Source: Bacteroidota bacterium
GTDB taxonomy: Bacteria; Bacteroidota; Bacteroidia; Flavobacteriales_F; PHOS-HE28
DNA: 58,754 bases
Direction of reading: 5' to 3'
NCBI GenBank assembly: GCA_023412755.1
Contig: JAEZCB010000015.1
Location: 1-58,754 of the forward strand
Shown: piece after piece, positions 31,308-58,732 of the stretch
Position numbering within the stretch: the first letter of the stretch is position 1
Layout of the letters: the number at the start of each line of letters is the position of its first letter
The notes under the pieces: model-generated
Databases searched by the model: none
What the model was told of the DNA's origin: nothing
What the model saw: the letters and a program-made list of their open reading frames with translations, nothing else
Program-made: the position numbers and the translations under genes

Positions 31308-31595
31308 TTAAAGATCACTGGTGGTGGGCTGTGTGATCCGTGGCGGAACAGCCGGAAGTGTATCGGTATCAGGGAGCGGTTGGCCGGATGCCTCTACGGT
31401 ATTCTCGATCTGATCAGGAGGCGCTAACTGCGTACCACTTGGTGAACCCAGCGGACCCGTTTCCGGCGCATGTTCACCACTTCTGCCAAGTGTGACGAAG
31501 ATACCCGCCACGACCAGCAGAACGATAATTAGCACCCACCATGTTCCTGATACCCTGGGGGTACGATCGCGCATGGGGTTATTCTCGTTCGTCAT
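31308..31595 (-). CDS. Small single-pass membrane protein with a Pro-rich tail
   Basis: An in-frame ATG at 31595 gives MTNENNPMRDRTPRVSGTWWVLIIVLLVVAGIFV, followed by a P/T/G-rich tail. Confidence 0.45.
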   Translation of the reverse strand: MTNENNPMRDRTPRVSGTWWVLIIVLLVVAGIFVTLGRSGEHAPETGPLGSPSGTQLAPPDQIENTVEASGQPLPDTDTLPAVPPRITQPTTSDL

Positions 31596-31714
31596 GGCCT
31601 CATTCTTTCCCAGTTCAAGTCCAACCAGCGTGCCGGACCGTAAAATCTCCATTCAGGTTCGATCTCCTTCGTTATGGCATCGCATTGGTACGCTTAATGA
31701 TCAAATCATTCATT

Positions 31715-31942
31715 ATGAAGATAGCGATCTTTGAAACACCGGGTCCAGGGCAGCCTGGCGATCCCGTACCAGAACCCGCGAAACAGCCGGACATGCCGCA
31801 ACCCAAGCGTTCGCCGGTACCAGGTGCACCTAGTGAAACGCCTCAGGAGCGGCCCAGCGATCCAGGTCAGAGGCCGGATACGACGCGGGAGCACCCGACC
31901 GACCCTGACCCACAGGAGCCGAAGGCTCCGATCGGTTATTGA
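31715..31942 (+). CDS. Small Pro-rich disordered protein (tentative)
   Basis: MKIAIFETPGPGQPGDPVPEPAKQPDMPQPKRSP... Its stop TGA (31940-31942) directly abuts the ATG of the next gene at 31943. Confidence 0.35.
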   Translation: MKIAIFETPGPGQPGDPVPEPAKQPDMPQPKRSPVPGAPSETPQERPSDPGQRPDTTREHPTDPDPQEPKAPIGY

Positions 31943-32620
31943 ATGCAGGGCGGTCCAGTGCGGCCGCTCTTGTGGTTACAGGGCGGCTACTTCGTGATCA
32001 CCGGCATATGGCCACTGGCCCATATGCCCAGTTTCCTTGATGTCACTGGGTACAAGGTGGAGTTGTGGTTGGTGGAGACCGTAGGTGTGCTCGTGCTCGC
32101 TATAGGTCTCGCCCTTTTGTTGAGTGCATCACGACCATTGCCACCGCTTTCAGTGATCACAATGGCCATGGTTTCGTCCGCTGGCCTGGCCGTGATAGAG
32201 GTGCAGTATGTTCTGAAGGGAATAATTCTTCCGATCTATTTGGCCGATGTTGTCGTGGAAGTGATCTTTCTGGTCTGGTGGAGTATGCTCCTGATCAAAT
32301 TCAGGGATCCAAATCCGCAGGTGAGATCCGGCTTGCGATCTACTGCGCTTTGTACCGGGGGGCACGGATCATTTCATCGGCGGCATCTCACCTTTATCCA
32401 AGCCACTCAGATCGTCATTCCTGCCGCGATCCAGATGCCCCAGATCATCATTGGCTTCTGTAGGCGGCCGCTGCTCATCGCGCCTATCATCATATCCAGC
32501 TTGTGTACCCGGGAATTGCTCATGTTCCGAGCGGCCACTTACTATATCGCCGCTTTTGCGCTCGTTGTCGGCATCCGGACTGGGACGATCCTTATTCTGA
32601 TCCAACACGGCATCCGGTGA
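31943..32620 (+). CDS. Small multi-pass membrane protein; the last ~100 codons look like read-through antisense to the next gene
   Basis: The first ~125 aa contain about 4 TM helices (YFVITGIWPLA, VGVLVLAIGLALLL, AMVSSAGLAVI, VVVEVIFLVWWSMLLI). The remainder is Ile-rich and mirrors the D/R/E-rich minus-strand ORF. Confidence 0.5.
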   Translation: MQGGPVRPLLWLQGGYFVITGIWPLAHMPSFLDVTGYKVELWLVETVGVLVLAIGLALLLSASRPLPPLSVITMAMVSSAGLAVIEVQYVLKGIILPIYLADVVVEVIFLVWWSMLLIKFRDPNPQVRSGLRSTALCTGGHGSFHRRHLTFIQATQIVIPAAIQMPQIIIGFCRRPLLIAPIIISSLCTRELLMFRAATYYIAAFALVVGIRTGTILILIQHGIR

Positions 32621-32869
32621 GGGCGGCGACGGATCCCCTTTCATGGGCGCATCCCGAAGACCCGAAGGAGTTGCATCCTTACGATCGTTTTCAAGGATGC
32701 GCTTGCGGTTCTCGGCGATCTTCTGATCATGGTCCGCGTTGGTGGCTTTCTTCTCACCTTGTGCACCACCACGTGGATCCTCCGGCCGCTTGTGCGTGGA
32801 GCCCATGCCGCCAGGTGTCATCTTCCCCGACTCATCGGAGCGCATATCTCGTTGCTTATCGCTTGGCAT
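32369..32869 (-). CDS. Highly charged, low-complexity hydrophilic protein (166 aa)
   Basis: D/R/K/E/P/G-rich with no hydrophobic core (MPSDKQRDMRSDESGKMTPGG...). Its ATG lies 1 nt after the stop of the upstream gene 32871..33311. Confidence 0.55.
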   Translation of the reverse strand: MPSDKQRDMRSDESGKMTPGGMGSTHKRPEDPRGGAQGEKKATNADHDQKIAENRKRILENDRKDATPSGLRDAPMKGDPSPPSPDAVLDQNKDRPSPDADNERKSGDIVSGRSEHEQFPGTQAGYDDRRDEQRPPTEANDDLGHLDRGRNDDLSGLDKGEMPPMK

Positions 32870-32870
32870 T

Positions 32871-33311
32871 TTATAATGGATCTTTTCTCGTTTGTTCGGC
32901 CACGTGATCAGGCTTGGTATTCTCCGGCTGTGTCCTGTCTTTCGGGATCATGGCGTGCACATCAAGCCGGCTCACCATGCGGTCCACTACGCCTGATGCG
33001 TAAGTACCAAAAGCATTCACCACGATACCCTTGATACCCAGTTCTTCCGATGAGATCGCATACACGATGGACATGTCCGCTGGATCACTGGTCCCTTCGA
33101 ACCGGTAGAATTCATCTATGGTGAATTTCTCCGGATCCAATGGTGTTTCCCGCACGCGGCTATAGAGCCCACGTTCGTTTATCTCCAGATCGGTATCGTA
33201 CCCACGCTTCTGCAGATCATTAACGCAAGTGGATAGCGTTCCATAGGAATGTTTGGCGCCTGTGATGTCCATGACCGTCGCATCGCAATAACCGGACCTT
33301 GTGAAAGACAA
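32871..33311 (-). CDS. Conserved hypothetical protein
   Basis: LSTCVNDLQKRGYDTDLEINERGLYS...PEKFTIDEFYRFEGTSDPADMSIVYAISSEELGIKGIVVNAFGTYAS matches a small family I recall from many Bacteroidota genomes. Its function is unknown. Confidence 0.6.
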   Translation of the reverse strand: MSFTRSGYCDATVMDITGAKHSYGTLSTCVNDLQKRGYDTDLEINERGLYSRVRETPLDPEKFTIDEFYRFEGTSDPADMSIVYAISSEELGIKGIVVNAFGTYASGVVDRMVSRLDVHAMIPKDRTQPENTKPDHVAEQTRKDPL

Positions 33312-33582
33312 CGAGCGCTATGATGGCAGAATAATGGAATGGAACTAAAACGTGCACACAAGCGCCTTTTGAGGATAAAGTTTTGGCACCTTGTCCGCTT
33401 GCCCTCTCTTTGTTGCATGAGAACCTCCCGATCGTAGTAGTGCTTCCCCAGCGAAGTGGATGCACTTATCGCATGGAAGCCAGTTGTTGTCAAGGGCCTG
33501 CGATCTGTGGAGATCGAATGACCTTGTATCCGTGCCCGGGCATTGTGCCTTGGGCGGTGCATGGCGGCAAAAATTCAACACA

Positions 33583-33933
33583 ATGGCGGATCAGAATAGA
33601 GAACGGGGTATGGAGAATAATGAAAGGAACCAACGCGAAGATCGCGAAAGAACAAGTGGAATGAGGGCGGAAGGTGGATCACCATCTTCTGCTTCCCGCG
33701 GCGCCGGGGGCGAAGACCAAGGCCTGGGAAGGAATGCCGGCCAGGAGCAGCGCAGTGGTACCCAGGGAACGGGGAATGAGAGCCGCGGTCAAGGCGGCAA
33801 TACCGGTGGCCAAAGCAGCGGTATGAGCAGCGGCCAAAGTGGAACGTCAGGAAGCGGCCGTGGCTCGCAGGAGCAGGGGCGCGGTGACTCGCAAGGCGGC
33901 GGCAACATGGGCGGCCAGCGCAGAGATCAATAG
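33583..33933 (+). CDS. Gly/Gln/Ser/Arg-rich hydrophilin-like protein
   Basis: An in-frame ATG in ORF 33460..33933 gives MADQNRERGMENNERNQREDRERTSG...GQGGNTGGQSSGMSSGQSGTSGSGRGSQEQGRGDSQGGGNMGGQRRDQ. Confidence 0.5.
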   Translation: MADQNRERGMENNERNQREDRERTSGMRAEGGSPSSASRGAGGEDQGLGRNAGQEQRSGTQGTGNESRGQGGNTGGQSSGMSSGQSGTSGSGRGSQEQGRGDSQGGGNMGGQRRDQ

Positions 33934-34055
33934 ATAGACCGATCGGCGAAAGCTCGTTCCCAGTGGTGGCATGATTCGATCATGCACGTGGGGATGAGCA
34001 TTCGTCGATAGGGGCTTCAAAGTTTATTCATCAGATACCAATACACGAGAATTCC

Positions 34056-34808
34056 ATGGCGAAGACCAGATCAGGATCCAGCGGGTCGAAGAGCCGCGCT
34101 GGAAAGAACAGCACAGGCTCAAAAAGCGGTTCCAACACAAAGTCCTCCAAGAGCCGCAGTTCCAACAACAACAGCCGTAAAATGGCCACAGCAAGCGCCG
34201 GCCGTTCCAATGGCAGCGCGGCATCATCCCGCGGCAAGAATACGAAGAGCAGCAATGGTGGTTTCTCCAGCGGAGCGAATGAAGGGTTGATGAAACTCTT
34301 TACAGAACAGCTGCAGGATGTTTATTACGTGGAGAAGCAGCTTATGCGCGGGCTGGCTCGCATGGCAAAGGCCGCTAACAGTGATGAGCTCCGCGCAGCA
34401 TTCGAAGAACATCGCGAGGAGACAGCCACTCAGATGGAGCGGTTGGAAGAGGTCTTCGAGATGTTGGATCGCAGCCCCAAGGGCAAGAAGTGCGAAGCCA
34501 TGGATGGCTTGATGGACGAGGCGAAGGAACTGATGGAGGATTTCTCCGATGATCCGGCTTTGGATGCTGCACTGGTGGCCGCGGCCCAAAAGGTGGAGCA
34601 TTATGAGATCGCCACCTATGGCAGCCTTTGCGCCTGGGCCGAGCAGCTGGGTCTTGAAGAAGCGATCCCACTGCTGGAGGAGACTTTGCAGGAGGAAAAG
34701 AAGACCGACCAGACCTTGACGGAACTGGCGGTAAGCATGATCAACGAAGAAGGCGAGGAAGGCCGCATGGAAACATCCGGCCGTGGCAACTCCTCGCGTT
34801 CCCGCTAA
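34056..34808 (+). CDS. DUF892 (YciE/YciF-like ferritin-fold) protein with a ~75-aa Ser/Lys/Asn-rich N-terminal extension
   Basis: Core LFTEQLQDVYYVEKQLMRGLARMAKAANSDELRAAFEEHREETATQMERLEEVFEML...KVEHYEIATYGSLCAWAEQLG is typical of DUF892. Confidence 0.8.
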   Translation: MAKTRSGSSGSKSRAGKNSTGSKSGSNTKSSKSRSSNNNSRKMATASAGRSNGSAASSRGKNTKSSNGGFSSGANEGLMKLFTEQLQDVYYVEKQLMRGLARMAKAANSDELRAAFEEHREETATQMERLEEVFEMLDRSPKGKKCEAMDGLMDEAKELMEDFSDDPALDAALVAAAQKVEHYEIATYGSLCAWAEQLGLEEAIPLLEETLQEEKKTDQTLTELAVSMINEEGEEGRMETSGRGNSSRSR

Positions 34809-34821
34809 AGAAGGAGCGGAT

Positions 34822-35976
34822 ATGTTGGCCATGAACTACAGAGGCCCCCAACGGATAAGGGTCTCCCACAAACCGATGCCCGAAATACGCCATCCGCAGG
34901 ATGCGATCGTGCGGGTCACCAGATCATGCATCTGTGGCTCCGATCTGCATCTTTACAATGGCAACGTACCCGATACCCGTGTGGGAATGACATTTGGTCA
35001 TGAGTTCACGGGTATCGTGGAAGAGATCGGTGCGGACGTGCACAAGTTGAAGGTGGGCGATCATGTGATCGTCCCCTTCAACATCGCATGCGGCAAATGC
35101 CACTACTGCAGGCAGGGTCTCTTTGGCTGCTGCCACGAATCCAACTCCCAGGCCACCGCCGTTGGTGGGATCTTCGGTTACTCCCATACCGCTGGTGGCT
35201 ATGATGGGGGCCAGGCCGAATATGTGCGTGTGCCATACGCCGATGTAGGTCCCACGGTGATACCGGAAGGAATGGACCTGGATGATGCGGTGATGCTGAC
35301 CGATGTGGTGCCCACCGGCTACCAGGCCGCTGAGATGGGCGGCATACAGGAAGGGGATACCGTAGTGGTGTTCGGAGCAGGCCCCGTTGGCATTATGGCC
35401 GCACGCTGCTCCTGGTTGTTCGGTGCGGGCCGGGTTATCGTGATCGATGAAGTCGATCATCGCCTTGAATTCGTGAAGAACTATGCGAAGTGCGAAGTGT
35501 ACAACTTCAACGAGATCGGTGATCCCGTGGTCTTCCTGAAACGTGCTACGGATTGGATGGGTGCCGATGTATGCATCGATGCTGTCGGTGCCGAAGCGGC
35601 CGGCAATGCCATGCAGACCATAACAGGGCGCAAGCTGCTGTTGCAGGCCGGTTCCGCCACGGCACTTCATTGGGCCATTAATTCGGTGAAGAAAGGCGGC
35701 ATCGTATCCATCGTAGGTGTCTACGGCCCCACGGACAATCTCATACCCATAGGCAACGTAGTGAACAAGGGGATCACCATCCGGGCCGGACAGGCCTCGG
35801 TGAAACGGCTTCTTCCCAGGCTCATCGATCATGTGCGCAACGGGATCCTGGATCCCAAGGCTTTGATCACGCACCGGTTGCCCCTGGAGGAAGTGGCCGA
35901 TGGATACCGCATCTTCTCAGACAAATTGGACGAGTGCATCAAGCCCGTGTTGATCCCGCCCAGAGCCCAAGCATGA
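34822..35976 (+). CDS. Zinc-dependent alcohol dehydrogenase family (glutathione-independent formaldehyde-dehydrogenase-like)
   Basis: VTRSCICGSDLHLYNG, GHEFTGIVEEIG, the CGKCHYCRQG structural zinc site and the GAGPVG NAD fold. The ATG at 34822 is preceded by AAGGAG. Confidence 0.85.
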   Translation: MLAMNYRGPQRIRVSHKPMPEIRHPQDAIVRVTRSCICGSDLHLYNGNVPDTRVGMTFGHEFTGIVEEIGADVHKLKVGDHVIVPFNIACGKCHYCRQGLFGCCHESNSQATAVGGIFGYSHTAGGYDGGQAEYVRVPYADVGPTVIPEGMDLDDAVMLTDVVPTGYQAAEMGGIQEGDTVVVFGAGPVGIMAARCSWLFGAGRVIVIDEVDHRLEFVKNYAKCEVYNFNEIGDPVVFLKRATDWMGADVCIDAVGAEAAGNAMQTITGRKLLLQAGSATALHWAINSVKKGGIVSIVGVYGPTDNLIPIGNVVNKGITIRAGQASVKRLLPRLIDHVRNGILDPKALITHRLPLEEVADGYRIFSDKLDECIKPVLIPPRAQA

Positions 35977-36470
35977 TAGATGATATGGAAACAGCGACAC
36001 GTAATGATATAAAGGGATGGGGAATGGATGCGGATCGGAAGAACGATCCCACTTATCCCATGAAGAAACGCACGGATGCCGAGCAAACAGGATACAGTTG
36101 GGATAGACCGGCGCAACAGCCCGTAACGGAAGAGGTCCTTCGTTCCATCGAACGTCCAAATATCTCGGCTGTTCATGGTACTTCCGCCCCACCCAGTGGT
36201 TTGAGCGGGGCCATAAGGCGGGCCGCATTCAAACAGAGTGAATCCAGCTATGGCCGATGGCTGCCCTTGATCCTGGCGGATCGTGTTAATGTGGTGGAAG
36301 GTGTATTGGATGATCTGATCCATGGACACTTCCCGAATTTCTTCAAGGAGAAGGGTTTCGGGGCGCGCTGGAAGTACGATCGGCAGAATGCCATGATATC
36401 GTTGGCTACTACGGTAGTCATCACTGCGGCAGTGGTAGGCCTGTTCATCCGACGGCGGGGTCGTCGTTGA
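35973..36470 (+). CDS. Hypothetical C-terminally membrane-anchored protein, translationally coupled to the dehydrogenase
   Basis: The ATG at 35973 overlaps the ADH stop (ATGA). MIDDMETATRNDIKGWGMDADRKNDPTYPMKKR... The C-terminal TM is ISLATTVVITAAVVGLFI, followed by RRRGRR. Confidence 0.55.
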   Translation: MIDDMETATRNDIKGWGMDADRKNDPTYPMKKRTDAEQTGYSWDRPAQQPVTEEVLRSIERPNISAVHGTSAPPSGLSGAIRRAAFKQSESSYGRWLPLILADRVNVVEGVLDDLIHGHFPNFFKEKGFGARWKYDRQNAMISLATTVVITAAVVGLFIRRRGRR

Positions 36471-36495
36471 ATCCAACATACTGATCAACGGAGGG

Positions 36496-36526
36496 GCAGG
36501 GCGAACATCACCCTGCTCTTTTTGTT
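36496..36526 (+). terminator. Terminator candidate
   Basis: gcaggg (36496-36501) pairs with ccctgc (36511-36516), followed by tctttttgtt. It overlaps the 3' end of the convergent gene. Confidence 0.45.
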
Positions 36527-37437
36527 CCCCGGCCTGGGAGCCAATGGCCTTCCTTCTGTAGTTCTTGAACAATGTTCAAAGCGGCCTTCACACCGTCCGC
36601 AGCGGCCACCACCACCATATTCGGGTCGGCGGCCGCATCGCCTACCACATAAAGACCTGGGACCTCTGTTCGCTGTTTCTTGTCGGTGCGGATCGCACCT
36701 GTTCTGGTGGTTCGGCATCCCATCTTCCGTGCTATGTCCCATTGTTGCCGCGTGGGGCCATCGAAGAATAGCGCATCCCGTTCCACGAGTTGTCCATCCT
36801 GAAGTTCCATGGCATGCATGCGATCATCATCACCAACAAGGCGGCGGATCTTTTCCTGGCGGATCGGGATCCCGGCATCAGAGGCACTCACCCTATCGTC
36901 GTGCTTCACCGAGACGCCGTTCGTGAAGAGGATCACATCCGGGCTCCAGGTAAGAAGCCCTTTCGCGATGGCCACACCCTTGTGTGGTGTGGTGGAGTAG
37001 ACCGCCAGGCGCTTATCCCGTACTTCCCAACCGTCGCAGAAAGGACAATGGAAGACGCTGGTGCCATAGTATTTGTCCATGCCGATCACCGGCGGCAGCT
37101 CATCCGTTTTACCGGTGGCAAGCACGATCCGGGGCGATTGGTACTGTTCTCCATTTTCCAGCGTAACGATAAAGCCATCCGGAATGCCTTGAAGGTCACT
37201 GGCGACCGCATCGATGATGCGTACGCCCAGCGCGAGCACCTCCGCATGTGCGGAGCGGCGCAGGTCCAACGGCGGCATACCGTCACGGCTTATGAAGCCA
37301 TGGATGCCATGCGCACGGATGTTGCGCGGTGTGGCCTTGTCGATCATCAAAACGTGCAGCCTGCTCCGCCCGAGGATCAGGGCGGAACTGGAACCGGCGG
37401 GACCTCCGCCGATCACGATCACATCATATGTATTCAC
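36508..37437 (-). CDS. Thioredoxin-reductase-like NAD(P)/FAD-dependent oxidoreductase
   Basis: YDVIVIGGGPAGSSSA FAD fold and the redox motif HCPFCDGWE. 309 aa. Starts with GTG. Confidence 0.8.
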   Translation of the reverse strand: MNTYDVIVIGGGPAGSSSALILGRSRLHVLMIDKATPRNIRAHGIHGFISRDGMPPLDLRRSAHAEVLALGVRIIDAVASDLQGIPDGFIVTLENGEQYQSPRIVLATGKTDELPPVIGMDKYYGTSVFHCPFCDGWEVRDKRLAVYSTTPHKGVAIAKGLLTWSPDVILFTNGVSVKHDDRVSASDAGIPIRQEKIRRLVGDDDRMHAMELQDGQLVERDALFFDGPTRQQWDIARKMGCRTTRTGAIRTDKKQRTEVPGLYVVGDAAADPNMVVVAAADGVKAALNIVQELQKEGHWLPGRGTKRAG

Positions 37438-37465
37438 TGGTCGGGGCGTTGAAGGGTTACGGTAC

Positions 37466-37498
37466 GTGAAAGCCCCGCCGGGGAGGGCGGGGCTTCAC
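37466..37498 (-). terminator. GC-rich hairpin downstream of the TG-rich LTXXQ gene
   Basis: gtgaaagccccgcc pairs with ggcggggcttcac (one bulge). There is no obvious U-tract. Confidence 0.4.
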
Positions 37499-37532
37499 GC
37501 CAAACGGAGGTTGAAGAACAACCTCACCAAAC

Positions 37533-51604: not shown

Positions 51605-53869
51605 ATGGATCGAACCTCTTCCGACAAGCCAGGAGATCAACGGCTTGTCATCATCGCCAATCGTCTTCCATACCGGATATCCGAACGGAACAATGTGCTA
51701 ACCGTAGTTCCCAGTGCAGGCGGTCTGGTCAGCAGCATAGGCTCATACATCTCCAAGAATGAAAATGCCAAGGATATACTCTGGGTCGGTGCATCCGATC
51801 TATCCGAGCGTAAATTGAGGAAGCACCTCGGGCCTCAGGGAGAATTGCAGGAAGGCCGTTATACCCTCCATCCCGTGTTCCTCCCGGGCGATGTGCAGGA
51901 TAATTTCTACAATGGATTCTGCAATTCCACCCTATGGCCTTTGTTCCACTACTTCACTTCTTATGTGAAGTATGACGAGGCCGAATACGAGGATTACAAA
52001 AAGGCTAACGAGATCTTCGCCGAGAAACTTGCTGGCATCCTGCTTCCCAATGACAAGATCTGGGTGCATGACTACCATTTGATGCTGTTGCCCGCCATGC
52101 TGCGCGAATTGCGGCCGGAAGCGGAGATCGGGTTCTTTCTACACATCCCTTTCCCCTCATCGGAAGTATTCCGTTCACTGCCCGATCGCTGGCGCAGGGA
52201 TCTGTTGCAGGGCGTGCTCAGTTCGGACCTCATCGGTTTCCATACACACGATTATGCCCAGCATTTCAAGCGCTCCGTTCAACACCTGCTCGGCTATGAT
52301 CACCACCTGCGCACCATTCGCACACCCGATCACGTGGCGGTGGTGGATGCATTCCCCATCAGCATAGACACCGCCTCGTTCCGCAACGCTTACAGCGATC
52401 CCACGGTGAAACGCGAACGGCAGCGGATCGAGCGCCAATGCAAGGGCAAGCGGATCCTCTTTTCCGTGGACCGCCTGGACTATACCAAGGGCTTGCTAAG
52501 CAGGCTGCATGCGTTCGAACATTTCCTTGAAAAGGAGAAGTGGGCTCAGGGGAATGTGATGTTCGTGATGGTGGTGGTCCCTTCCCGGGATGTGGTGAGC
52601 ACATACGCGGATCTGCGGCGCGAGATCGAAATGTTGGTAAGCCGCATCAATGGCAAGTACGGGAACATCGACTGGACCCCCGTGGTGTACCAGTATCGTT
52701 CGGTGGACCATGCGCATCTCGTAGCCTTGTACAGTTCCGCGGATGTCGCACTCATCACGCCGCTTCGCGATGGTATGAATCTCGTGGCGAAGGAATTCGC
52801 GGCCAGCCGAAAGGATAGGCGGGGCGTGTTGGTCCTGAGCGAAACAGCGGGTGCGGCGGCCGAACTGAGTGGGGCCATCCTTGTGAATCCGAATGACAAG
52901 GAGGCCATCGCTTCGGCCATTTCGCGCGCACTCTCCATGCCTCCGGAAGAACAGGAGGAACGCCATGAGGCCATGGCGAAACGTTTGGATCAATACGATG
53001 TGGATCGTTGGGCCAAGGATTTTCTGGATGAATTGCATGATGCCCGTGATCGCCAGGAAAGGATGCGTGCGAAAGAGGTGACCCCGGCGATCGAATCGGA
53101 TATCCTGAAGCGTTTCCACCAAGCCGGGTCACGCTTGTTGTTGCTCGACCATGATGGCACGTTGGTACCCTTCTCCAAGGAACCGAATAAGGCGGTGCCT
53201 ACCCCGGAGGTGCTGGACCTGTTGGAAGAGCTTACCAGGGATGATAGCAACGACCTGGTGGTGATCAGTGGAAGAGGGTCCGATGAATTGACCAGATGGT
53301 ATGGCCATTTGCCTGTGATCCTTTGTGCGGAGCATGGGGTCTTCTTCAGGGATCCGAAAGGGAAATGGCGCAGAACCATCCCCGATCAGAGGGACTGGCT
53401 GCATCGGGTGCAACCCATGTTCGAAGCGTTGGCGGAAAGATGCCCAGGTGCGCTGGTGGAAGAGAAACGCAACTCCATTGCCTGGCACTATCGCGGAGCT
53501 GATCGGGATCTTGGTTTTTTACGGAGCCGGGAATTGGTGGATCGCCTGAACGATATTGCCCCGGAACTGGGTTTCCGTGTCACGGAAGGCGATAGGGTGG
53601 TGGAGGCCCGCCCGCTCGGAGCGGACAAGGGCACACTTGTACGAGCCATGACCGGAGAAGGGAAGATCGATTTTATATTAGCGATGGGCGATGATCGTAC
53701 GGATGAGGACATGTTCGCGGCATTACCTCGGGACGCCTTCTCCATTTGCATCGGACTGCGGCCCACCCTCGCACGTTTCAATCTGCGCAATCAAAAGGAT
53801 GTTGTGCCTTTCCTGAGCCGCGTGCTGCGACCTGTAAGCGAACTGCATCAGCTCAAACATGATCGCTGA
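51605..53869 (+). CDS. otsAB: Bifunctional trehalose-6-phosphate synthase / trehalose-6-phosphate phosphatase (OtsA-OtsB fusion)
   Basis: The in-frame ATG at 51605 is the likely start. The GT20 part has VIIANRLPYRI, FCNSTLWPLFHY, WVHDYHLMLLP and DGMNLVAKEF. The HAD part has LLLLDHDGTL and AMGDDRTDEDMF. Confidence 0.9.
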   Translation: MDRTSSDKPGDQRLVIIANRLPYRISERNNVLTVVPSAGGLVSSIGSYISKNENAKDILWVGASDLSERKLRKHLGPQGELQEGRYTLHPVFLPGDVQDNFYNGFCNSTLWPLFHYFTSYVKYDEAEYEDYKKANEIFAEKLAGILLPNDKIWVHDYHLMLLPAMLRELRPEAEIGFFLHIPFPSSEVFRSLPDRWRRDLLQGVLSSDLIGFHTHDYAQHFKRSVQHLLGYDHHLRTIRTPDHVAVVDAFPISIDTASFRNAYSDPTVKRERQRIERQCKGKRILFSVDRLDYTKGLLSRLHAFEHFLEKEKWAQGNVMFVMVVVPSRDVVSTYADLRREIEMLVSRINGKYGNIDWTPVVYQYRSVDHAHLVALYSSADVALITPLRDGMNLVAKEFAASRKDRRGVLVLSETAGAAAELSGAILVNPNDKEAIASAISRALSMPPEEQEERHEAMAKRLDQYDVDRWAKDFLDELHDARDRQERMRAKEVTPAIESDILKRFHQAGSRLLLLDHDGTLVPFSKEPNKAVPTPEVLDLLEELTRDDSNDLVVISGRGSDELTRWYGHLPVILCAEHGVFFRDPKGKWRRTIPDQRDWLHRVQPMFEALAERCPGALVEEKRNSIAWHYRGADRDLGFLRSRELVDRLNDIAPELGFRVTEGDRVVEARPLGADKGTLVRAMTGEGKIDFILAMGDDRTDEDMFAALPRDAFSICIGLRPTLARFNLRNQKDVVPFLSRVLRPVSELHQLKHDR

Positions 53870-54186
53870 CCAATGGTGGTCTTTCTTCACGCATGGTGAG
53901 GTTCACTGGCCCCAATGGACCTGATCATGGGTCAATGGCTCTAGTTCGGTAAAAGCGCGCCTTTGTGGCCGATCCCTCCGGATCTTTGCCTCGATCCAGC
54001 TGCGGAAGCATCCAGGTGATGCGGCTGTCCATGCGCTGCGGCTTAAATGGCGCATGTATTGCCGAGAAAAGGTGGACCACTTGAGCATGAGCATCGCCTT
54101 CTTGGAACGGTTTGTTTCCCGGATGTATATGCGAATGATTCAGGTTGTCCGGAAACAAGATGCACACATAACTAAAACAGAGAACA

Positions 54187-55017
54187 ATGGCGGAATATCC
54201 AAGAGATCCTGGCACAACAGGCACCGGGCATAGCGGGGCCACAGGAGGAACAGGCTATACAGGTGGCACCGGTCATACAGGTGGCACCGGATACACAGGA
54301 GGTACAGGTCATACCGGGGGTACCGGTCCGGGAGGTCCGGGTCATAGGCGTAATGATCGCGAACCGAAGAGTTCAGCTGCGATATGGATCGTAGGTATCG
54401 TGGTGGTGGTAGGTGCGCTCGCGATCTGGATAGCACGGAATACCGTGGACGAATCGGATCGCATGCAGGCGAGGCCCGGAATGGAGCAAACGGGTTCGGA
54501 AAGGGATTTCGATCGCAACAATACGGCAGCACCATATGGTACAGATGGTGATCGAGACTTCGAGAACCGGCGAGGTGATCAAGGTTCCTTTGGAACCGAT
54601 GGCCGTGTAGGTACATCCACGGACGGTCGCTCCATGGATGATCGAGGCACCCTGGATGCACAAGAAGGTACTGGAACGATCCGTGGAGATTTCGAAGATC
54701 CCAGATTCGAAGAGGGTGACCAACGAGGTACGGGCACACAAGGTACCGGTACGGTAGGAACCCAGGGTGGTGGCACGGGAACAACCGGTGGTGGCACCAT
54801 GGGAACCGGCACAGCTACTGAAGGTGTGGGAACACAGGGCCAGACCAGTCCTCGAACGGGTACCACAGGTACAGGTGATACAGGCACTCAAAACAACATG
54901 AACACCGAGGGTGGAACGAATACCGGAACCGGGACCTCCGGAACGAATGCGGGCGGACAAGGCACAGGCGGTACGGGATCCCAGGGAACTGGCTCCGGTA
55001 CTACCACCACACCGTGA
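54187..55017 (+). CDS. Single-pass membrane protein with an N-terminal collagen-like G-X-T run and a C-terminal Thr-Gly-rich low-complexity region
   Basis: MAEYPRDPGTTGTGHSGATGGTGYTGGTGHTGGTGYTGGTGHTGGTGPGGPGH. The TM is AAIWIVGIVVVVGALAIWIA. A D/R/G-rich stretch is followed by GTGTQGTGTVGTQGGGTGTTGGGTMGTGTA...GSGTTTTP. Confidence 0.6.
   Translation: MAEYPRDPGTTGTGHSGATGGTGYTGGTGHTGGTGYTGGTGHTGGTGPGGPGHRRNDREPKSSAAIWIVGIVVVVGALAIWIARNTVDESDRMQARPGMEQTGSERDFDRNNTAAPYGTDGDRDFENRRGDQGSFGTDGRVGTSTDGRSMDDRGTLDAQEGTGTIRGDFEDPRFEEGDQRGTGTQGTGTVGTQGGGTGTTGGGTMGTGTATEGVGTQGQTSPRTGTTGTGDTGTQNNMNTEGGTNTGTGTSGTNAGGQGTGGTGSQGTGSGTTTTP
54226..54342 (+). repeat. Imperfect 18-nt tandem repeat (GGN ACN GGN YAY ACN GGN) encoding 13 consecutive Gly-X-Y triplets
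   Basis: Read directly: ggc acc ggt cat aca ggt / ggc acc gga tac aca gga / ggt aca ggt cat acc ggg / ggt acc ggt ccg gga ggt ... Confidence 0.75.
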
Positions 55018-55030
55018 TCATTGGTCCGGC

Positions 55031-55071
55031 AAAAGGAAAAGGCCCTGGGGATACCAGGGCCTTTTCCTTTT
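55031..55071. terminator. Bidirectional rho-independent terminator
   Basis: aaaaggaaaaggccctgg / ccagggccttttcctttt is an 18-bp stem between convergent genes, with A- and T-runs. Confidence 0.8.
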
Positions 55072-55088
55072 GCTTTATCTGCGGTGGA

Positions 55089-56249
55089 TCATTTGTCTTT
55101 TTCCTTATCACCACCGAATAGGCGCTTGAAGAACCCCCGTTCATCCTTCTCATGCCCTTCATCCACCTGCCCGATATTTATATCCCGGTCCAACTGGGGT
55201 TCCAATGCCTTGATGAACGCGTTCCTTAGCAGATCCACAACCGCATACCAGGTCAATACATTGGGGTCTTCGAGATCCCCCTCCAACGGTACCCTCGTGG
55301 CGATCTGCTGCTCATTCGGGTTACGGATCAAACTCGTGCCCAAGGCCACCAACCCCTGCCATATCTGCTCGCCAAGAGGTTTGTCACGATCCTTTGGTCC
55401 CAATACCTGCAGATCCTCGATCACCGGTTTCACATAGCCGATGAATTTTCCTTGGTTGGAAGCGATCTCCGTGAATAAGCTGATGCGGCCTTGCTGGATA
55501 TCAAAGTTGCCATAAGCCTGGAAGAATTCATTGAAAAGGGTCATGTCCGCATTCTCCAGGCGTACAGCCATATCGAAGGTTGGCGAGCTGGCAATGGGAT
55601 CGAGCCCCATGTCCAGATCGAAAGTGCCACCATAGACATTGGCGTTCATGCGCACACTGCCGGGAAGCAGATCGTTCGTGTCCTTCTCTGTGGTAAGACC
55701 CTCCGCCACCAATTCTATATGCTCCATGGCGAGGAATACTTCCGGGCTGGTGGTGGGATCGCGGAATTGAAAGGATCCATTCCGGATCTCGAATCGCTCG
55801 ATCTCTATGGGCATGAAATCCTCGAATAGATCGGCCAGCTCAGTTGTGTCCTGGGCCACTTCCTTCGGCTCTACTTCATCTTTTGTGAACCTTACCATGG
55901 GCCGATCAAGGATCACCTGTCCGGCGATACGTCCATTGAAAATCGCCTCCCACTCCAAGGGATGATCGATGTTGTCCACCGCCACGAACGGGCTCCTTAC
56001 GCCGGAGGTGGTATCCTGCTTGTCAAGGAATGCGGAGTGTATCTGGTACGCACCACGCAGTATCGCCAGGGATAGATCATCGATATGCCCGTAGTATCCG
56101 GGCATCTCTTTCAAGCGCTTGTTCGCCTGGTCCAATAGCACATATGGCAGGGCTATCCTAACTGCCAGTATGATCACTACCAGGACCAGGAGTATCTTCC
56201 AGATGGTCCCTTTCCGGCGTTTTTTACCGTTGTCGTTCTTACTACTCAT
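55089..56249 (-). CDS. DUF748-like membrane-anchored protein
   Basis: The in-frame ATG at 56249 gives MSSKNDNGKKRRKGTIWKILLVLVVIILAVRIALPYVLLDQANKRLKEMPGYYGHIDD, which resembles the DUF748 N-terminus. The family assignment is from memory only. Confidence 0.5.
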   Translation of the reverse strand: MSSKNDNGKKRRKGTIWKILLVLVVIILAVRIALPYVLLDQANKRLKEMPGYYGHIDDLSLAILRGAYQIHSAFLDKQDTTSGVRSPFVAVDNIDHPLEWEAIFNGRIAGQVILDRPMVRFTKDEVEPKEVAQDTTELADLFEDFMPIEIERFEIRNGSFQFRDPTTSPEVFLAMEHIELVAEGLTTEKDTNDLLPGSVRMNANVYGGTFDLDMGLDPIASSPTFDMAVRLENADMTLFNEFFQAYGNFDIQQGRISLFTEIASNQGKFIGYVKPVIEDLQVLGPKDRDKPLGEQIWQGLVALGTSLIRNPNEQQIATRVPLEGDLEDPNVLTWYAVVDLLRNAFIKALEPQLDRDINIGQVDEGHEKDERGFFKRLFGGDKEKDK

Positions 56250-56468
56250 GCCGCTGGCTTGGCAACTGTCATTCCTCAAGTAACGGAAAGCCGGTTCAAT
56301 TGGATGAACTTGTGGTCCATAAGGCGGGATGAGCGTATACGGTTCGCCATCGATCGGGGAGCGCAATCCACGATCGATCGTTAATTATGAAAGAGCTCTT
56401 CTTCCGCTCCCTTCAGTAATAGGATCGGCATAAGCTTCGCCCATTGTAAGGATCATAAGCGATCACAG

Positions 56469-56618
56469 ATGGAGAAGCATAATTCCAAGAGAGTGACAAG
56501 GCGTGGTGTAGGAAGCAATGATCAGCGGGCACTGAAGTGGAAGGAGCAGGCCATCCTGGATGCCATCCGCGCGAAAGGCTATAAAGCGGATGAGATCGTG
56601 GTAAGGTTTGAAGAATAG
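56469..56618 (+). CDS. Candidate small basic ORF (49 aa) immediately upstream of ku, below the track cutoff
   Basis: My translation is MEKHNSKRVTRRGVGSNDQRALKWKEQAILDAIRAKGYKADEIVVRFEE*. Its stop lies 3 nt before the ku ATG. Confidence 0.35.
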   Translation: MEKHNSKRVTRRGVGSNDQRALKWKEQAILDAIRAKGYKADEIVVRFEE

Positions 56619-56621
56619 GTC

Positions 56622-57398
56622 ATGAGAGCGATTTGGAAAGGAGCGATCGCGTTCGGATTGGTGAACATTCCTGTGAAGCTTTTCAGTGCTTCACAGGGAA
56701 GTGAACTCGATCTTGATATGCTGGACGCGAAGGATCATGCGCGCATCCGTTTTCGTCGTGTGAATGAGAACACTGGGAAGGAGGTTCCCTATGAGCGCAT
56801 CGTTCGCGCATTCAACAGTGAAGGTCGGTATGTTGTGGTCTCCGATGAGGATATGAAGAAGGCCGCTGCGGAAAAGACCGGCACCATATCGATCCAGGAT
56901 TTCATACCAGAGGAACAGGTGCCTGGCAAATACTTCGAGAAGCCATACTATCTCGCACCGGAAAAAAGCGGAGAGCGGGCGTACGCCCTGTTGCGCGAGG
57001 CGTTGAAGAAGAGCAAGAAGGTGGCCGTGGCGACCTTTGTCATGCGCACCAAGGAACATCCGGGCCTGCTTGTTCCAGATGGTGATGTGCTCATCCTTAA
57101 TCAGCTTCGCTATGCGGAGGAGGTCCGCGATCCCAATGAACTGAATGTGCCCCGTGATGTGAAGATCCCACCGGCGGAGCTCAAGCTGGCCATGTCACTC
57201 ATCGATCAGGGAACAGGTGAGTTCGATATCAAACGGTATAAGGACACCTATTCCGAACAGCTCATGAAGATGATCCACGCCAAGGCCAAGGGCAAACCCA
57301 TTCCACAGAAGGAATTGAAGGTGGTTCATACCAAGGGGGATGATCTCATGGATCAGCTCAAGGCGAGCTTGAATACGCGTAAGAAAAAGTCTTCATGA
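56622..57398 (+). CDS. ku: Ku protein (bacterial non-homologous end-joining)
   Basis: MRAIWKGAIAFGLVNIPVKLFSA..., ...YFEKPYYLAPEKSGERAYALLREAL... and a basic C-terminal tail. Confidence 0.95.
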   Translation: MRAIWKGAIAFGLVNIPVKLFSASQGSELDLDMLDAKDHARIRFRRVNENTGKEVPYERIVRAFNSEGRYVVVSDEDMKKAAAEKTGTISIQDFIPEEQVPGKYFEKPYYLAPEKSGERAYALLREALKKSKKVAVATFVMRTKEHPGLLVPDGDVLILNQLRYAEEVRDPNELNVPRDVKIPPAELKLAMSLIDQGTGEFDIKRYKDTYSEQLMKMIHAKAKGKPIPQKELKVVHTKGDDLMDQLKASLNTRKKKSS

Positions 57399-57988
57399 GC
57401 CGCCTTTCAAACTATCAGCAGAAGCGGGATCTATCCCGCACTCCGGAACCGCCCGCGCGCCCGCATCGCCAGCAAAAGGGCCATACCATTTTCGTGATAC
57501 AGAGGCATAAGGCCACGCGGCTCCATTATGATCTCCGGCTGGAGATGGAAGGCGTGCTGAAGAGTTGGGCCGTTCCAAAAGGCCCATCATTGGATCCGAA
57601 ACATCGCAGGTTGGCCATCAGGGTGGAGGATCATCCGTATGACTACAAGGATTTCGAAGGCGTGATCCCTCCTGGTAATTATGGGGCCGGCATAGTAGAG
57701 TTATGGGATAAGGGCACGTATGAACCTGTGGATGCCGAAGGGAATGTCATAACCGCTAACAAAGCGTTGAAGGATCTTGAGAAGGGCTCCCTGAAATTCC
57801 GGCTCAATGGTTCCAAGTTGAAAGGTGGCTTCGCGCTGGTCCACATGTCTGGCAGTGATGATGAGAATGCCTGGTTGTTGATCAAACACCGGGATGAAGC
57901 AGCCGTTCCCGGTTATGACAGCGAGGAGCATGTTCCGGCGGATTCTCCCATAAACAAGGAGCGGGCGAAGAAGAAGCGGCGCCCTTAA
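57395..57988 (+). CDS. Stand-alone LigD 3'-phosphoesterase (PE) domain protein
   Basis: FVIQRHKATRLHYDLRLEMEGVLKSWAVPKGPSLDP...VEDHPYDYKDFEGVIPPGNYGAGIVELWDKGTY. It overlaps ku by 4 nt (ATGA). There is no ligase or polymerase domain in the ORF. Confidence 0.9.
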   Translation: MSRLSNYQQKRDLSRTPEPPARPHRQQKGHTIFVIQRHKATRLHYDLRLEMEGVLKSWAVPKGPSLDPKHRRLAIRVEDHPYDYKDFEGVIPPGNYGAGIVELWDKGTYEPVDAEGNVITANKALKDLEKGSLKFRLNGSKLKGGFALVHMSGSDDENAWLLIKHRDEAAVPGYDSEEHVPADSPINKERAKKKRRP

Positions 57989-58264
57989 GCGCCGCTGGCG
58001 AGGGTCTTCCGTTCATCTATTGCTGCGAACAATGGTACGCTATACACGAGCGTGTGGAATGGGCGTGGCGTTCCATTCTCAGCACTCGGCTGCGGATCAT
58101 TTACGGTAGTGTATAGGCTTGTGCGCATCCTTTCTTGTGATCCTCCCGGCCAGTAGGGCATGGACCGGTCCCGGTGCAATTGGATCTGGATCCAGCGGAT
58201 CCCGGTGGCATGGATCATGTACCCCGCAGCAACGATCGCCATCGATCCTTAAAAGACCAAGAGA

Positions 58265-58732
58265 ATGGATAATAATGCTACCAGATCAGCGCTGAAGGAC
58301 ATCGCTGAACTATTGATCGACAGCAGGAAAGGTTATCAGGAAGCGGCTGAAAGAGTGGAAGCTCCGCATCTGAAGCAGCTGCTGACAAAGTTGAGTTCTG
58401 AACGCTCACCGCTGGTCAACGAGATCGAGTCCCAGTTGCGGATGTTCGGTGAGGATGCGATGCCCAAGGATGGCACCATGAAGGGTGATCTGCACCGGGC
58501 CTGGATCGATATCCGGGATTCACTCACCGGCAGCTCCAACGCCAATGTGCTGAATGAATGTGAACGCGGTGAAAAATATCTGCTGGAGCGTTATGATGAG
58601 TACATCAATGACCAGGATGTCTCAGCGAATGTGAAGAGCATGCTGAACCAGCAGCGCTCAAAAGTGCAGAGCAATATCAACGAAGTGCAGGCCTTGCACG
58701 CAACGCATGAGGCCAGCGAAAAGAACAAGTGA
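58265..58732 (+). CDS. PA2169-family (DUF2383) four-helix-bundle ferritin-like protein
   Basis: LKDIAELLIDSRKGYQEAAERVEAPHLKQLLTKLSSERSPLVNEIESQLRMFGE and a second half with NECERGEKYLLERYDEY fit that family. Confidence 0.65.
   Translation: MDNNATRSALKDIAELLIDSRKGYQEAAERVEAPHLKQLLTKLSSERSPLVNEIESQLRMFGEDAMPKDGTMKGDLHRAWIDIRDSLTGSSNANVLNECERGEKYLLERYDEYINDQDVSANVKSMLNQQRSKVQSNINEVQALHATHEASEKNK

Follow-up and report, generated by a model that had tools for sequence, protein, structure and literature searches.

The right-hand part of the analysed window, a stretch of 58,754 nucleotides, is a lineage-specific patchwork of gene modules (Table 1), neither a fixed locus nor a mobile island. We consider it probable that this block belongs to the chromosome of an uncultured Flavobacteriales-like bacterium and was inherited vertically, and that in it at least three separately conserved protective modules lie side by side around a DnaE2-type polymerase gene. 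The original prediction had described one organised cluster of stress, dormancy and DNA-damage genes. As an observation this was confirmed as a whole, as the families are present where they had been placed and no mobility or regulator gene was found. As an interpretation it held in part: the block is chromosomal and non-mobile and its co-localisation is recurrent, but a single locus, the membership of DnaE2 and a common motif were not supported.

Table 1. Coordinates of the modules, genes and promoter-like elements
Feature	Position	Strand	Basis or remark
tRNA-Leu(caa)	30558-30640	-	ARAGORN and Rfam; landmark of the backbone, bordering the block on the left; no att site of the block
brx, bacilliredoxin-type thiol-disulfide gene	30844-31227	+	PF06491, 8.7e-60; last backbone gene
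brx terminator hairpin	31238-31288
Module L	31308-39570		Pfam; collinear with L176
DUF892	34056-34808		PF05974, 1.6e-58
Zn-ADH	34876-35976
Pyr_redox_2/TrxR-like flavoprotein	36508-37437
Module A	39812-43389		Pfam
DAO+Rieske oxidoreductase	40232-41761	-	Pfam
Upstream block, DAO/ytxH divergent region	41816-41849	+	Palindrome CCCCAGTATGGGG and GGAAT-N15-CGTT; L169 alignment
Sigma-54-type -24/-12 element TGGCACGCGCTATGCC	41931-41946	+	57 nt upstream of ytxH ATG; pattern and PWM scans
YtxH	41988-42326	+	PF12732
T9SS cupredoxin	42563-43189	+	Tail 24 bits vs Pfam cut-off 27
Gly-rich hydrophilin-like ORF, 134 aa	43458-43862	-
Sigma-54-type element GGCACCCTCTTTGC	43890-43903	-	41 nt upstream of 43458-43862 ATG; no orthologue for footprinting
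PolIII-alpha, DnaE2 type	44260-47205	-	Pfam
Module R	47313-58732		Pfam and NCBIfam; collinear with L170
Cupin_2	49307-50005/50197
Bifunctional OtsA-OtsB	51605-53869		NF011071, 930 bits vs cut-off 634
DUF748	55089-56279	-
Weaker sigma-54-type element CGGCATAAGCTTCGCC	56425-56442	+	PWM 11.6
Ku	56622-57398		TIGR02772, 291 vs 150
LigD, PE domain only	57395-57988		TIGR02777, 216 vs 144
Sigma-54-type conserved island GGTGGCATGGATCATGTACCCCG	58203-58225	+	59 nt upstream of DUF2383
DUF2383	58265-58732

Gene content of the block

The protection, trehalose and DNA-break-repair families were all recovered by Pfam and NCBIfam at the coordinates in Table 1. Module L contains a transmembrane/Pro-rich ORF, three hydrophilin-like ORFs (32369-32845, 33583-33933 and 38774-39097), an unknown conserved family (32871-33272), DUF892, Zn-ADH, a 178-aa transmembrane protein, the TrxR-like flavoprotein, two LTXXQ-motif secreted proteins and a 109-aa ORF. 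Module A has a 94-aa lipoprotein-like disordered ORF and the DAO+Rieske oxidoreductase on the minus strand and, divergent from both, a plus-strand operon of ytxH, a 52-aa ORF, the T9SS cupredoxin and a 67-aa ORF. Module R consists of four unknown ORFs, the cupin, a 254-aa ORF, a 186-aa ORF (50995-51555) and OtsA-OtsB, and then a 276-aa Gly/Thr-rich transmembrane protein, DUF748 on the minus strand, a 49-aa ORF, Ku, the LigD phosphoesterase and DUF2383. Its right end, DUF748-Ku-LigD_PE (55089-57988), is referred to as module C. A reading of brx as BREX was rejected, as the gene is of the bacilliredoxin type.

Several assignments have to be read with their scores. The T9SS tail of the cupredoxin falls under the Pfam cut-off, and the protein at the matching position in a relative with 70% Ku identity weakly matches Cupredoxin_1 and Por_Secre_tail. 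The LTXXQ proteins (37533-38162 and 39094-39570) carry the motif and signal peptides, with weak matches to Spy/CpxP (E 0.007). Doubt attaches to the 78-residue low-complexity N-terminus of DUF892, since gene calling gives the identical sequence a length of 172 aa elsewhere and the protein of the relative a length of 183 aa. NCBIfam did not separate DnaE from DnaE2 for the polymerase, both models being under their cut-offs.

Small hydrophilic, low-complexity ORFs had also been predicted, and seven to ten ORFs of the block are hydrophilin-like: six have GRAVY < -1 and Gly > 6%, and a seventh has GRAVY -0.97 and 27% Gly. Codon positions were compared for seven low-complexity or hydrophilic ORFs, each having an orthologue in relatives (32369-32845, 33583-33933, 37533-38162, 38774-39097, 39094-39570, 39812-40096 and 54187-55017). 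Differences per aligned codon were 0.56-0.69 at the third position versus 0.19-0.37 at positions 1 and 2, and therefore these ORFs are translated, real genes. The substitution pattern indicates in-frame purifying selection on the disordered ORFs with orthologues.

Modular synteny in relatives

Directly 3' of brx, whose orthologue in L176 lies in the same place and is 84% identical, module L is collinear with L176 gene for gene at 42-87% amino-acid identity. Its DNA identity to the syntenic relative, 70-78%, is similar to that of the backbone. L088, a more distant relative, has no such module, its tRNA-Leu and DnaE2 being 1.7 kb apart. The genes of module A are found in L168 and L169 at 48-67% identity, inverted and immediately after Ku-LigD_PE; module C is also present in L169, where modules A and C are fused. 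The gene order of module R is kept in L170, with 33-84% identity, although L170 has no cupin and a full LigD. A contig from the same species that extends further (L165) shows at least 8 kb more of such genes beyond the window edge, among them another DUF892, Csp, TopIB, SDR, RidA and AKR.

On the one hand, modules L and R are thus each collinear in a relative. On the other hand, the block as a whole is split, and the scattering of orthologues that would speak against a single locus was found in part. In the nearest relative, whose Ku is 87-88% identical, the block genes form at least two clusters, with no gene shared within the 10-kb flanks. The 31.3-39.6 kb part occupies the same backbone site there, while the YtxH/Rieske and Ku/LigD genes are elsewhere, joined to each other; other genes intervene between the clusters, and DnaE2 and OtsAB are unlinked.

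DnaE2 itself was rejected as a member of the stress block; it is an old backbone gene whose place beside tRNA-Leu and dCMP deaminase is ancestral. It adjoins these genes in L088, where the tRNA follows dCMP deaminase, and in L074, where the same tRNA adjoins DnaE2. In 160 related loci, no block gene was found within 10 kb of DnaE2, except four weak DUF2383 matches. The polymerase is homologous (47% identical) to the DnaE2-type gene of the lexA-dnaE2-Y-family (imuB-like) mutagenesis cassette of L074, where that gene lies between lexA-like and dinB-like genes, but it stands alone in the window, with no LexA-like or Y-family polymerase gene or remnant found.

Recurrence of the families around Ku

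Ku is an equivalog-level match and is translationally linked to the LigD 3'-phosphoesterase domain protein, as in a Ku-LigD NHEJ operon. The window differs from such an operon by the absence of the ligase and primase-polymerase domains, which are present in L170, L173, L174 and L177; 276 nt of non-coding DNA are found where they would be. Phosphoesterase-only LigD partners also occur in L169 and L175, and a 49-53-aa ORF 5' of Ku is conserved.

In five independent lineages Ku is again surrounded by the same families, and therefore their co-localisation is no accident of one contig. The neighbours include DJ-1, Usp, Csp and CsbD in L171; PNPOx, BrkB, DUF2383, TopIB, DUF892 and a homologue of 32871-33272 in L172; KatE, TopIB and SDR in L173; and cupredoxin, DUF2383, TopIB, TspO and homologues of 32871-33272 and 50995-51555 in L177. 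Since several Bacteroidota at a greater distance also have these families close to Ku, the association is a real one, though modular.

Considering this recurrence, we regard it as unlikely that the block is mostly a coincidental aggregation, in which a variable region gathers accessory genes and "stress" is read from DUF labels by association. Such a reading would agree with the about 22 of about 37 ORFs without any family match, with the Ku genes of L174 and L175, near which no stress neighbours were found, and with a module order that is different in every relative compared. However, DUF2383, DUF892, TopIB, Csp, cupredoxin and the families of 32871-33272 and 50995-51555 recur beside Ku at 63-70% Ku identity, and modules A and C re-associated after rearrangement in L169.

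Promoter-like elements

The block had been described as having no visible regulator. This holds for genes, as no ORF matched an HTH or sigma family and neither rpoN nor an activator gene was found in the window, but not for sites: conserved -24/-12 elements lie in front of ytxH, DUF2383 and the Ku operon, and a fourth element, seen in the window sequence alone, lies in front of 43458-43862. These sigma-54-type elements give a candidate regulator for part of the block. Three of them are conserved islands within diverged intergenic DNA. The ytxH element is kept as TGGCACGCACTATGCC in L169 between diverged flanks. The Ku-operon element, 43 nt upstream of the 49-aa ORF heading the Ku-LigD_PE operon, is conserved at aligned positions in L170 (CGGCATGGCCATGGCT) and L169 (CGGCACGAGCATGGTT). 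The critical -12 GC of the DUF2383 element is GT in this genome, and L170 has the canonical -12 (GGTGGCATGGATCATGCACCCCG) amid unalignable DNA.

Two of the four window matches to a strict GGCAY-N5-WTGC pattern, which was set post hoc with the sites already seen, have a correctly oriented start 41-57 nt downstream (probability about 0.0035, with 2.4% of positions qualifying), while the total of four is not above the five expected by chance. An equally high-scoring match is located inside the radA zinc-finger coding sequence (19984-19999), and therefore a high score does not by itself discriminate. In L171, Csp and a 72-aa ORF have similar elements 40-45 nt upstream; scans of the L172, L173 and L177 Ku clusters, and of module L in both the window and L176, gave none. 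The conserved elements are palindromic in part and may alternatively be repressor operators. The 41816-41849 block, the single intergenic match to GGAAY-N14-17-CGTY in the window, could serve to bind an activator or as a further promoter.

One co-regulated general-stress locus under a single master regulator, as originally proposed, is quite unlikely, considering that the de novo check revealed no motif common to the 25 upstream regions of the block, that the ECF-like motif occurs once and that only modules A and R have sigma-54-like sites. The clusters of the nearest relative and the isolation of DnaE2 argue in the same direction. This proposal does accord with the density of families that belong to RpoS, SigB and EcfG regulons elsewhere, with their presence near Ku in distant Bacteroidota, and with the signal-transduction genes that border such clusters in relatives: module L is followed by a HATPase_c protein in L176, the L171 cluster has an OmpR-type pair and that of L177 a CheB/CheR/PAS giant, and rpoN with an NtrC-type activator adjoins the Ku cluster of L172.

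A horizontally acquired or once-mobile island beside tRNA-Leu is highly improbable: the tRNA at the left border, the 13.6 kb from it to DnaE2 compared with the shorter distance in L088 and the differing gene content of relatives would suit it, but no ORF matched an integrase or transposase family, no conjugation or phage gene and no direct repeats of the tRNA or att repeats were found, the tRNA has the block on its 5' side and a backbone gene in between, the composition of the block is indistinguishable from the backbone (tetranucleotide correlation with the housekeeping half 0.88-0.94, uniform GC), and a relative keeps module L in synteny at backbone-like identity.

Proposed role and comparison with known systems

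For the patchwork of modules, we infer both the physiological role and the reason for the clustering. Modules L, A and R, the last with about 8 kb more, would have been brought together around the old DnaE2 and would jointly serve the survival of non-growing, dry or oxidised cells. OtsA-OtsB would synthesise trehalose, the hydrophilin-like disordered proteins and YtxH would be protectants, the ferritin-like DUF892 and DUF2383 with the redox enzymes would act against oxidative damage, and Ku with the LigD phosphoesterase would process broken DNA ends. The stress roles of DUF892, DUF2383, YtxH and DUF748 are presumed from regulon membership in other phyla rather than from known biochemistry. Regulation would be non-unitary: as modules A and R carry conserved putative sigma-54-type promoters, they would be switched on by RpoN and an enhancer-binding activator encoded elsewhere, whereas module L has no such signal.

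The general stress regulons of RpoS (Gammaproteobacteria), SigB (Bacillota) and EcfG/PhyR (Alphaproteobacteria) comprise dispersed genes under one sigma factor with a common promoter. The window resembles them in otsBA, YciE/YciF-type DUF892, YtxH and Ku/LigD, its relatives in catalase, CsbD and a PNPOx-like protein, and both in the presumed protection of non-growing cells. In contrast, the window genes are physically clustered, without a common promoter or such a sigma gene, and the sole recognisable signal is of the sigma-54 type and concerns a subset of genes.

Sigma-54 is already documented as a stress sigma factor in Flavobacteriia: in Flavobacterium psychrophilum, a member of the same class, its promoters drive genes of envelope stress and protein quality control, and grpE/groES depend on it in Bacteroidota (PMC9723704; PMC12316311). 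The window shares with the F. psychrophilum SM4 promoters a -24/-12 element before stress genes and exported unknowns. The reported targets are chaperones, proteases, envelope-stress and gliding genes, and the passages considered here name no Ku/LigD, YtxH, DUF2383 or hydrophilin-like gene as a target (PMC9723704; PMC12316311); the window elements, for their part, are known from sequence conservation alone.

In Acinetobacter baumannii, the hydrophilins DtpA/DtpB and the dtpC-katE operon are desiccation-tolerance factors (PMC13232832). Both systems combine disordered hydrophilic and oxidative-stress proteins, in the window as presumed protectants of dried cells, with some of the genes adjacent (PMC13232832). 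The window ORFs have no sequence relationship to these factors, and many more such ORFs, with a predicted protectant role, are clustered here.

Modular organisation of the block

The 27-kb block (approximately 31308-58732) had been predicted to be one organised locus of stress, dormancy and DNA-damage genes. In related genomes its parts are scattered, so this reading was abandoned. On the one hand, contig L176 of the nearest relative, whose DUF892 is 84% identical, runs collinear with the window, gene by gene, from 23.8 to 39.6 kb. All genes of module L (31308-39570) stand there immediately behind the bacilliredoxin gene, and beyond them come a HATPase_c protein, Rce1, DUF4349 and an aminotransferase. 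On the other hand, in contigs L168/L169 of the same organism, DUF748 (minus strand), Ku and LigD_PE are followed at once by an inverted cupredoxin-48aa-YtxH operon, DAO+Rieske and two small ORFs, between flanks of PorP/CHU_C and ribonucleotide reductase. The 20-kb loci L176 and L169 have no gene in common. A further relative, L170 (Ku 84%), is collinear with the window at 47.3-58.7 kb and carries the additional 180-aa gene; it has a full-length LigD and no cupin, and its flanks are frr and pyrH. The synteny of these three loci indicates that the 27 kb are a juxtaposition of module L, module A (39812-43389) and module R (47313-58732) around DnaE2. Judged from the compared sequences, this juxtaposition is specific to the species or to a narrow clade.

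These closer relatives came from homologues of Ku and DUF892. Relatives of DnaE2 were sought in 185,579 species genomes (GTDB) and JGI metagenomes, where the best identity was 60%. A conserved block around DnaE2 was rejected because, in the 160 loci taken with 10-kb flanks, no block genes lay within 10 kb except four weak DUF2383 matches. The polymerase itself (44260-47205) scored 494 bits with NF004225 (cut-off 939) and 572 bits with the DnaE model (cut-off 1002), NCBIfam being unable to separate DnaE from DnaE2. In locus L074 (9155-14190), DnaE2 lies between lexA-like and dinB-like genes and adjoins the same tRNA and deaminase. Locus L088 shares the backbone panC-glgA-DUF4270-glmS-TM2-sodA-S41-dCMP deaminase-tRNA-Leu with the window at 52-86% identity, and there just 1.7 kb separate the backbone and tRNA-Leu from DnaE2, whose orientation relative to tRNA-Leu is inverted in the window. 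Both arrangements argue that DnaE2 belongs to the old backbone. No LexA-like or Y-family gene adjoins it in the window, where remnants of lexA or dinB were not detectable either; the gene has apparently lost its lexA-like and dinB-like partners.

The absence of mobility genes was borne out: no integrase, recombinase or transposase was found among all window ORFs (Pfam/NCBIfam), nor in the 8 kb past the window edge on the same-species contig L165. A search for att repeats matching the tRNA 3' end gave only short chance-level pairs and no long repeats, and the block is located 5' of tRNA-Leu. Considering that GC is 0.52-0.59 along the whole window and that the tetranucleotide correlation of block and backbone is 0.88-0.94, nothing in the composition points to a foreign origin. 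The block is not a mobile island.

Features of the window and of related loci
Feature	Position	Content or context
Ordinary housekeeping half	1-31227	proS, ComF-like, SBP_5, OmpA, 1909-aa T9SS Ig protein, radA, panD/panC, glgA, glmS, sodA, S41 peptidase, dCMP deaminase
tRNA-Leu(caa)	30558-30640	
Bacilliredoxin-type gene	30844-31227	PF06491
Terminator hairpin of bacilliredoxin-type gene	31238-31288	
Sigma-54-type element TGGCACGCGCTATGCC	41931	57 nt upstream of ytxH
Sigma-54-type element GGCACCCTCTTTGC	43890-43903	41 nt upstream of hydrophilin-like ORF 43458-43862
Sigma-54-type element GGTGGCATGGATCATGTACCCC		59 nt upstream of DUF2383; -12 reads GT in window
Weaker sigma-54-type element CGGCATAAGCTTCGCC	56425	43 nt upstream of 49-aa ORF heading Ku operon
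L165 beyond DUF2383		180-aa paralogue of ORF 50995-51555, second DUF892, Csp four-helix protein, two unknown ORFs (one strongly hydrophilic), topoisomerase IB, SDR, RidA, aldo-keto reductase
L171 Ku neighbourhood		DJ-1, Usp, Csp, CsbD
L172 Ku neighbourhood		PNPOx-like, BrkB, DUF2383, DUF6496, TopIB, DUF892, homologue of 32871-33272
L173 Ku neighbourhood		KatE, TopIB, SDR
L177 Ku neighbourhood		T9SS cupredoxin, DUF2383, TspO, TopIB, homologues of 32871-33272 and 50995-51555

Gene families of the block

Genes were called by a codon-usage model trained on long ORFs, and all block ORFs were scanned against Pfam and NCBIfam. Every family named in the original prediction was found where it had been placed, among them DUF892 (with a doubtful low-complexity N-terminus), Zn-ADH, a Pyr_redox_2/TrxR-like flavoprotein, DAO+Rieske, YtxH, the PolIII-alpha polymerase, cupin, DUF748 and DUF2383. 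Two descriptions stood in part. Motif and signal peptides are present in both LTXXQ proteins, and their similarity to Spy/CpxP is weak; the sorting tail of the presumed T9SS cupredoxin is sub-threshold in the window, and a protein at the corresponding position in L177 matches Cupredoxin_1. The OtsA-OtsB protein is bifunctional at equivalog level (NF011071, 930 bits against a cut-off of 634, with residues 12-741 spanning both domains). Approximately 22 block ORFs had no family match, and Rfam at gathering and permissive thresholds returned tRNA only. Two stretches, 31653-32368 (716 nt) and 47664-48066 (403 nt), hold no convincing ORF, Rfam match or DNA conservation with L176, which at the position of the first stretch has a gap of comparable length.

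Ku was identified at equivalog level (TIGR02772, 291 bits against a cut-off of 150), and the LigD protein of the window is the 3'-phosphoesterase (PE) domain alone (197 aa, TIGR02777). In L170 the ligase and primase-polymerase parts occupy the same place (10774-13364), where the window (57395-58264) has 276 nt of non-coding DNA. A tblastn search of the window with this part of L170 found neither, and a copy may lie elsewhere in the genome. Since the ligase and polymerase domains are absent, the block has no complete NHEJ operon. Ku is paired with a PE-only protein in L169 and in the distant Ku neighbourhood L175 as well. Directly upstream of Ku lies a 49-aa basic ORF (56469-56618) without a family match, which has counterparts of 47-54% identity in L169 and L170; the one in L170 overlaps the Ku start codon.

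By the definition of hydrophilins used here (Gly >6%, GRAVY approximately -1 or lower), ORFs 32369-32845, 33583-33933, 37533-38162, 38774-39097, 43186-43389 and 43458-43862 qualify, each with GRAVY below -1 and all belonging to the ORFs that lack a family match, and ORF 54187-55017 is borderline. When seven low-complexity or hydrophilic ORFs were aligned with their orthologues, differences per aligned codon amounted to 0.56-0.69 at third positions and 0.19-0.37 at positions 1 and 2, and this third-position excess indicates translated genes under relaxed purifying selection. For five of the seven hydrophilin-like ORFs the relatives supplied an orthologue for comparison, and all five showed the coding substitution pattern; 43186-43389 and 43458-43862 lack one.

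Recurrence of the families near Ku

Ku neighbourhoods at 63-70% Ku identity again hold members of the family set of the block (Table), and none of these families was found in neighbourhoods L174 and L175. Co-localisation at the family level is probably meaningful. Two recurrent families deserve mention. The family of ORF 32871-33272 is small, confined to Bacteroidota, and has the invariant core RFEG..P.D...YA; it stands beside Ku or DUF2383 in four lineages (the window, L176 8480-8929, L177 9629-9997 and L172 15720-16064), and a cultivable Fluviicola species carries it too. It had no sequence match in Pfam, NCBIfam or PDB, and Foldseek against PDB with its AlphaFold model (mean pLDDT 68) returned nothing better than E 0.05. 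The NCBI label "phosphoribosylpyrophosphate synthetase" on some of its records looks like a propagated misannotation.

The family of ORF 50995-51555 (180-186 aa) is rare: in a set of 1.84 billion representative proteins, approximately 40 clusters (50% identity) match it at E <= 0.001, and a few of these are long multi-domain proteins; a search for its function gave no matches. Two paralogues exist in the species, the one upstream of OtsA-OtsB and a second downstream of DUF2383 (L165 12180-12722), which share the C-terminal motif LEDDLYGLALxGRGSYLIE, and a homologue lies in L177 at 4640-5194.

Regulation

The original prediction saw no regulator. This holds for genes, as sigma, anti-sigma and HTH genes were absent (Pfam/NCBIfam), and fails for promoter-like signals, as sigma-54-type (-24/-12) elements were present. 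De novo motif discovery in 25 upstream regions (k-mers, gapped dyads, EM) yielded only GATC/CGATCG-type words and start-codon context. The CGATCG palindrome occurs 53 times in the window against 23.6 +/- 4.7 expected from dinucleotide shuffles, and is spread evenly over housekeeping and block DNA, GATC-containing words being generally common; this over-representation is window-wide and therefore not specific to the block. GGCATG ("TGGCATG") was discarded as a block motif since it is frequent everywhere, and so was an ECF-type GGAAY-N14-17-CGTY promoter (four matches, one intergenic, against 7.5 expected). The perfect palindrome GCATGAT-TCG-ATCATGC (7+3+7, 33969-33985) upstream of the long DUF892 ORF was also rejected, as it is not kept in L176 and its spacing is unfit for sigma-54; its halves look like the boxes of the DUF2383 element set 4 nt further apart. 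A scan for sigma-70 and terminator consensus gave counts below shuffle expectation, that consensus being unsuited to Bacteroidota promoters. Neither mark of a single-sigma general stress regulon, a common promoter motif or a linked sigma/anti-sigma gene, was found in the block. Considering that the common motif is lacking, the block belongs to none of the single-sigma regulons (RpoS, SigB, EcfG).

Sigma-54-type elements were defined as GG and GC dinucleotides 10 nt apart (TGGCAC-N5-TTGC-like) upstream of a gene on its coding strand, and were found by inspection and pattern scans. Elements of this definition precede ytxH, ORF 43458-43862 and the Ku operon, and the DUF2383 element has the canonical -12 TGC in L170. 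Within diverged intergenic DNA, the elements of ytxH (against L169), DUF2383 (against L170) and the Ku operon (against L169 and L170) form islands of identity. In L171, Csp and a small ORF are each preceded by a similar element at a distance of 40-45 nt. The window holds four strict matches, of which two are at promoter-competent positions, a class that makes up 2.4% of all positions (P ~0.0035, for a pattern chosen post hoc); the total count of strict matches is not above chance. An equally good match, TGGCATGGGCAATGC at 19984-19999 (-), lies inside the zinc-finger coding sequence of radA (W-H-G-Q-C-G-N-C) and is a useful false-positive control.

The elements do not cover the whole block: sites of this type were absent from module L in both the window and L176, and a sigma-54 PWM gave no convincing sites in the L172, L173 and L177 clusters. 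The window encodes neither RpoN nor an enhancer-binding activator; next to the Ku cluster of L172 lie rpoN and an NtrC-type activator gene. Ahead of the ytxH element, at a distance of 85-125 nt, a conserved stretch (41816-41849) combines the palindrome CCCCAGTATGGGG with an ECF-like GGAAT-N15-CGTT; an activator may bind there, or the stretch may act as a second promoter. Signal-transduction genes edge several related clusters, namely HATPase_c after module L in L176 (15847-17340), an OmpR-type pair in L171 (18999-20780), CHASE3 kinase-rpoN-NtrC-PAS kinases in L172 (1064-9039) and a giant CheB/CheR/PAS protein in L177 (1-3529); none of these bordering genes is in the window.

Proposed role

Observed are the genes themselves, their modular synteny, the lack of mobility features and the conservation of promoter-like elements; what the block does we infer from its genes. 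Its products may jointly protect non-growing, dry or oxidised cells, with trehalose, YtxH and disordered proteins as protectants, ferritin-like and redox proteins, and Ku for the processing of DNA ends. Modules A and R would be switched on via RpoN and an unlinked enhancer-binding protein, and module L would be under other control. The clustering may have arisen because a variable region was rearranged again and again and linkage was to some degree favoured by selection. According to PMC9723704 and PMC12316311, genes for protein quality control, envelope stress and exported proteins are transcribed from sigma-54 promoters in Flavobacterium psychrophilum, and grpE and groES are reported to depend on sigma-54 in Bacteroidota. 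With such targets in the class, sigma-54 control fits known biology.

The wider proposal is that sigma-54 with a dedicated enhancer-binding activator runs a desiccation/dormancy programme in this Flavobacteriales lineage, its genes having been physically drawn together. The programme would comprise Ku/LigD phosphoesterase end repair, YtxH, ferritin-like DUF2383, a secreted cupredoxin and fast-evolving hydrophilin-like proteins, with families 32871-33272 and 50995-51555 at its core. We consider this proposal rather unlikely. If true, Bacteroidota would have their own equivalent of the general stress response, with sigma-54 in the place of RpoS, SigB or EcfG; if the sigma-54 link fails, the block would be no more than a variable stretch of chromosome, of an ordinary kind, with many stress-associated accessory genes. 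Among known systems, the closest are the general stress regulons of RpoS, SigB and EcfG in content, the sigma-54 stress regulon of Flavobacteriia in promoter type, Ku-LigD among operons, and the desiccation factors of Acinetobacter in concept (PMC13232832). Full-text searches, which cannot prove absence, found no described general stress response or regulator in Bacteroidota, no described Bacteroidota stress locus, and no report of DUF892, DUF2383 and YtxH together.

The contig and its relatives offer a testable gene set of re-associating protective modules, real hydrophilin-like proteins, two recurrent unknown families and a phosphoesterase-only Ku partner, together with a concrete regulatory hypothesis, sigma-54 promoters ahead of ytxH, Ku and DUF2383. 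Its notable points are that the genes are physically clustered, that so many real hydrophilin-like genes are among them, that two uncharacterised families recur, and that Ku may be under sigma-54 control.

Extent of the block and the housekeeping half

The window is a metagenomic contig whose right edge is the contig end, and the block outruns it, as the 39-kb contig L165 extends beyond DUF2383. Identical copies of window proteins are present on ENA, NCBI (GCA_023412375.1) and Logan contigs. The gene called "brx" at the left border is a bacilliredoxin gene and has nothing of BREX. The 1909-aa protein encoded in the housekeeping half (12945-18674) is secreted, contains Ig/PKD repeats, ends in a T9SS sorting tail and is unrelated to the stress block.
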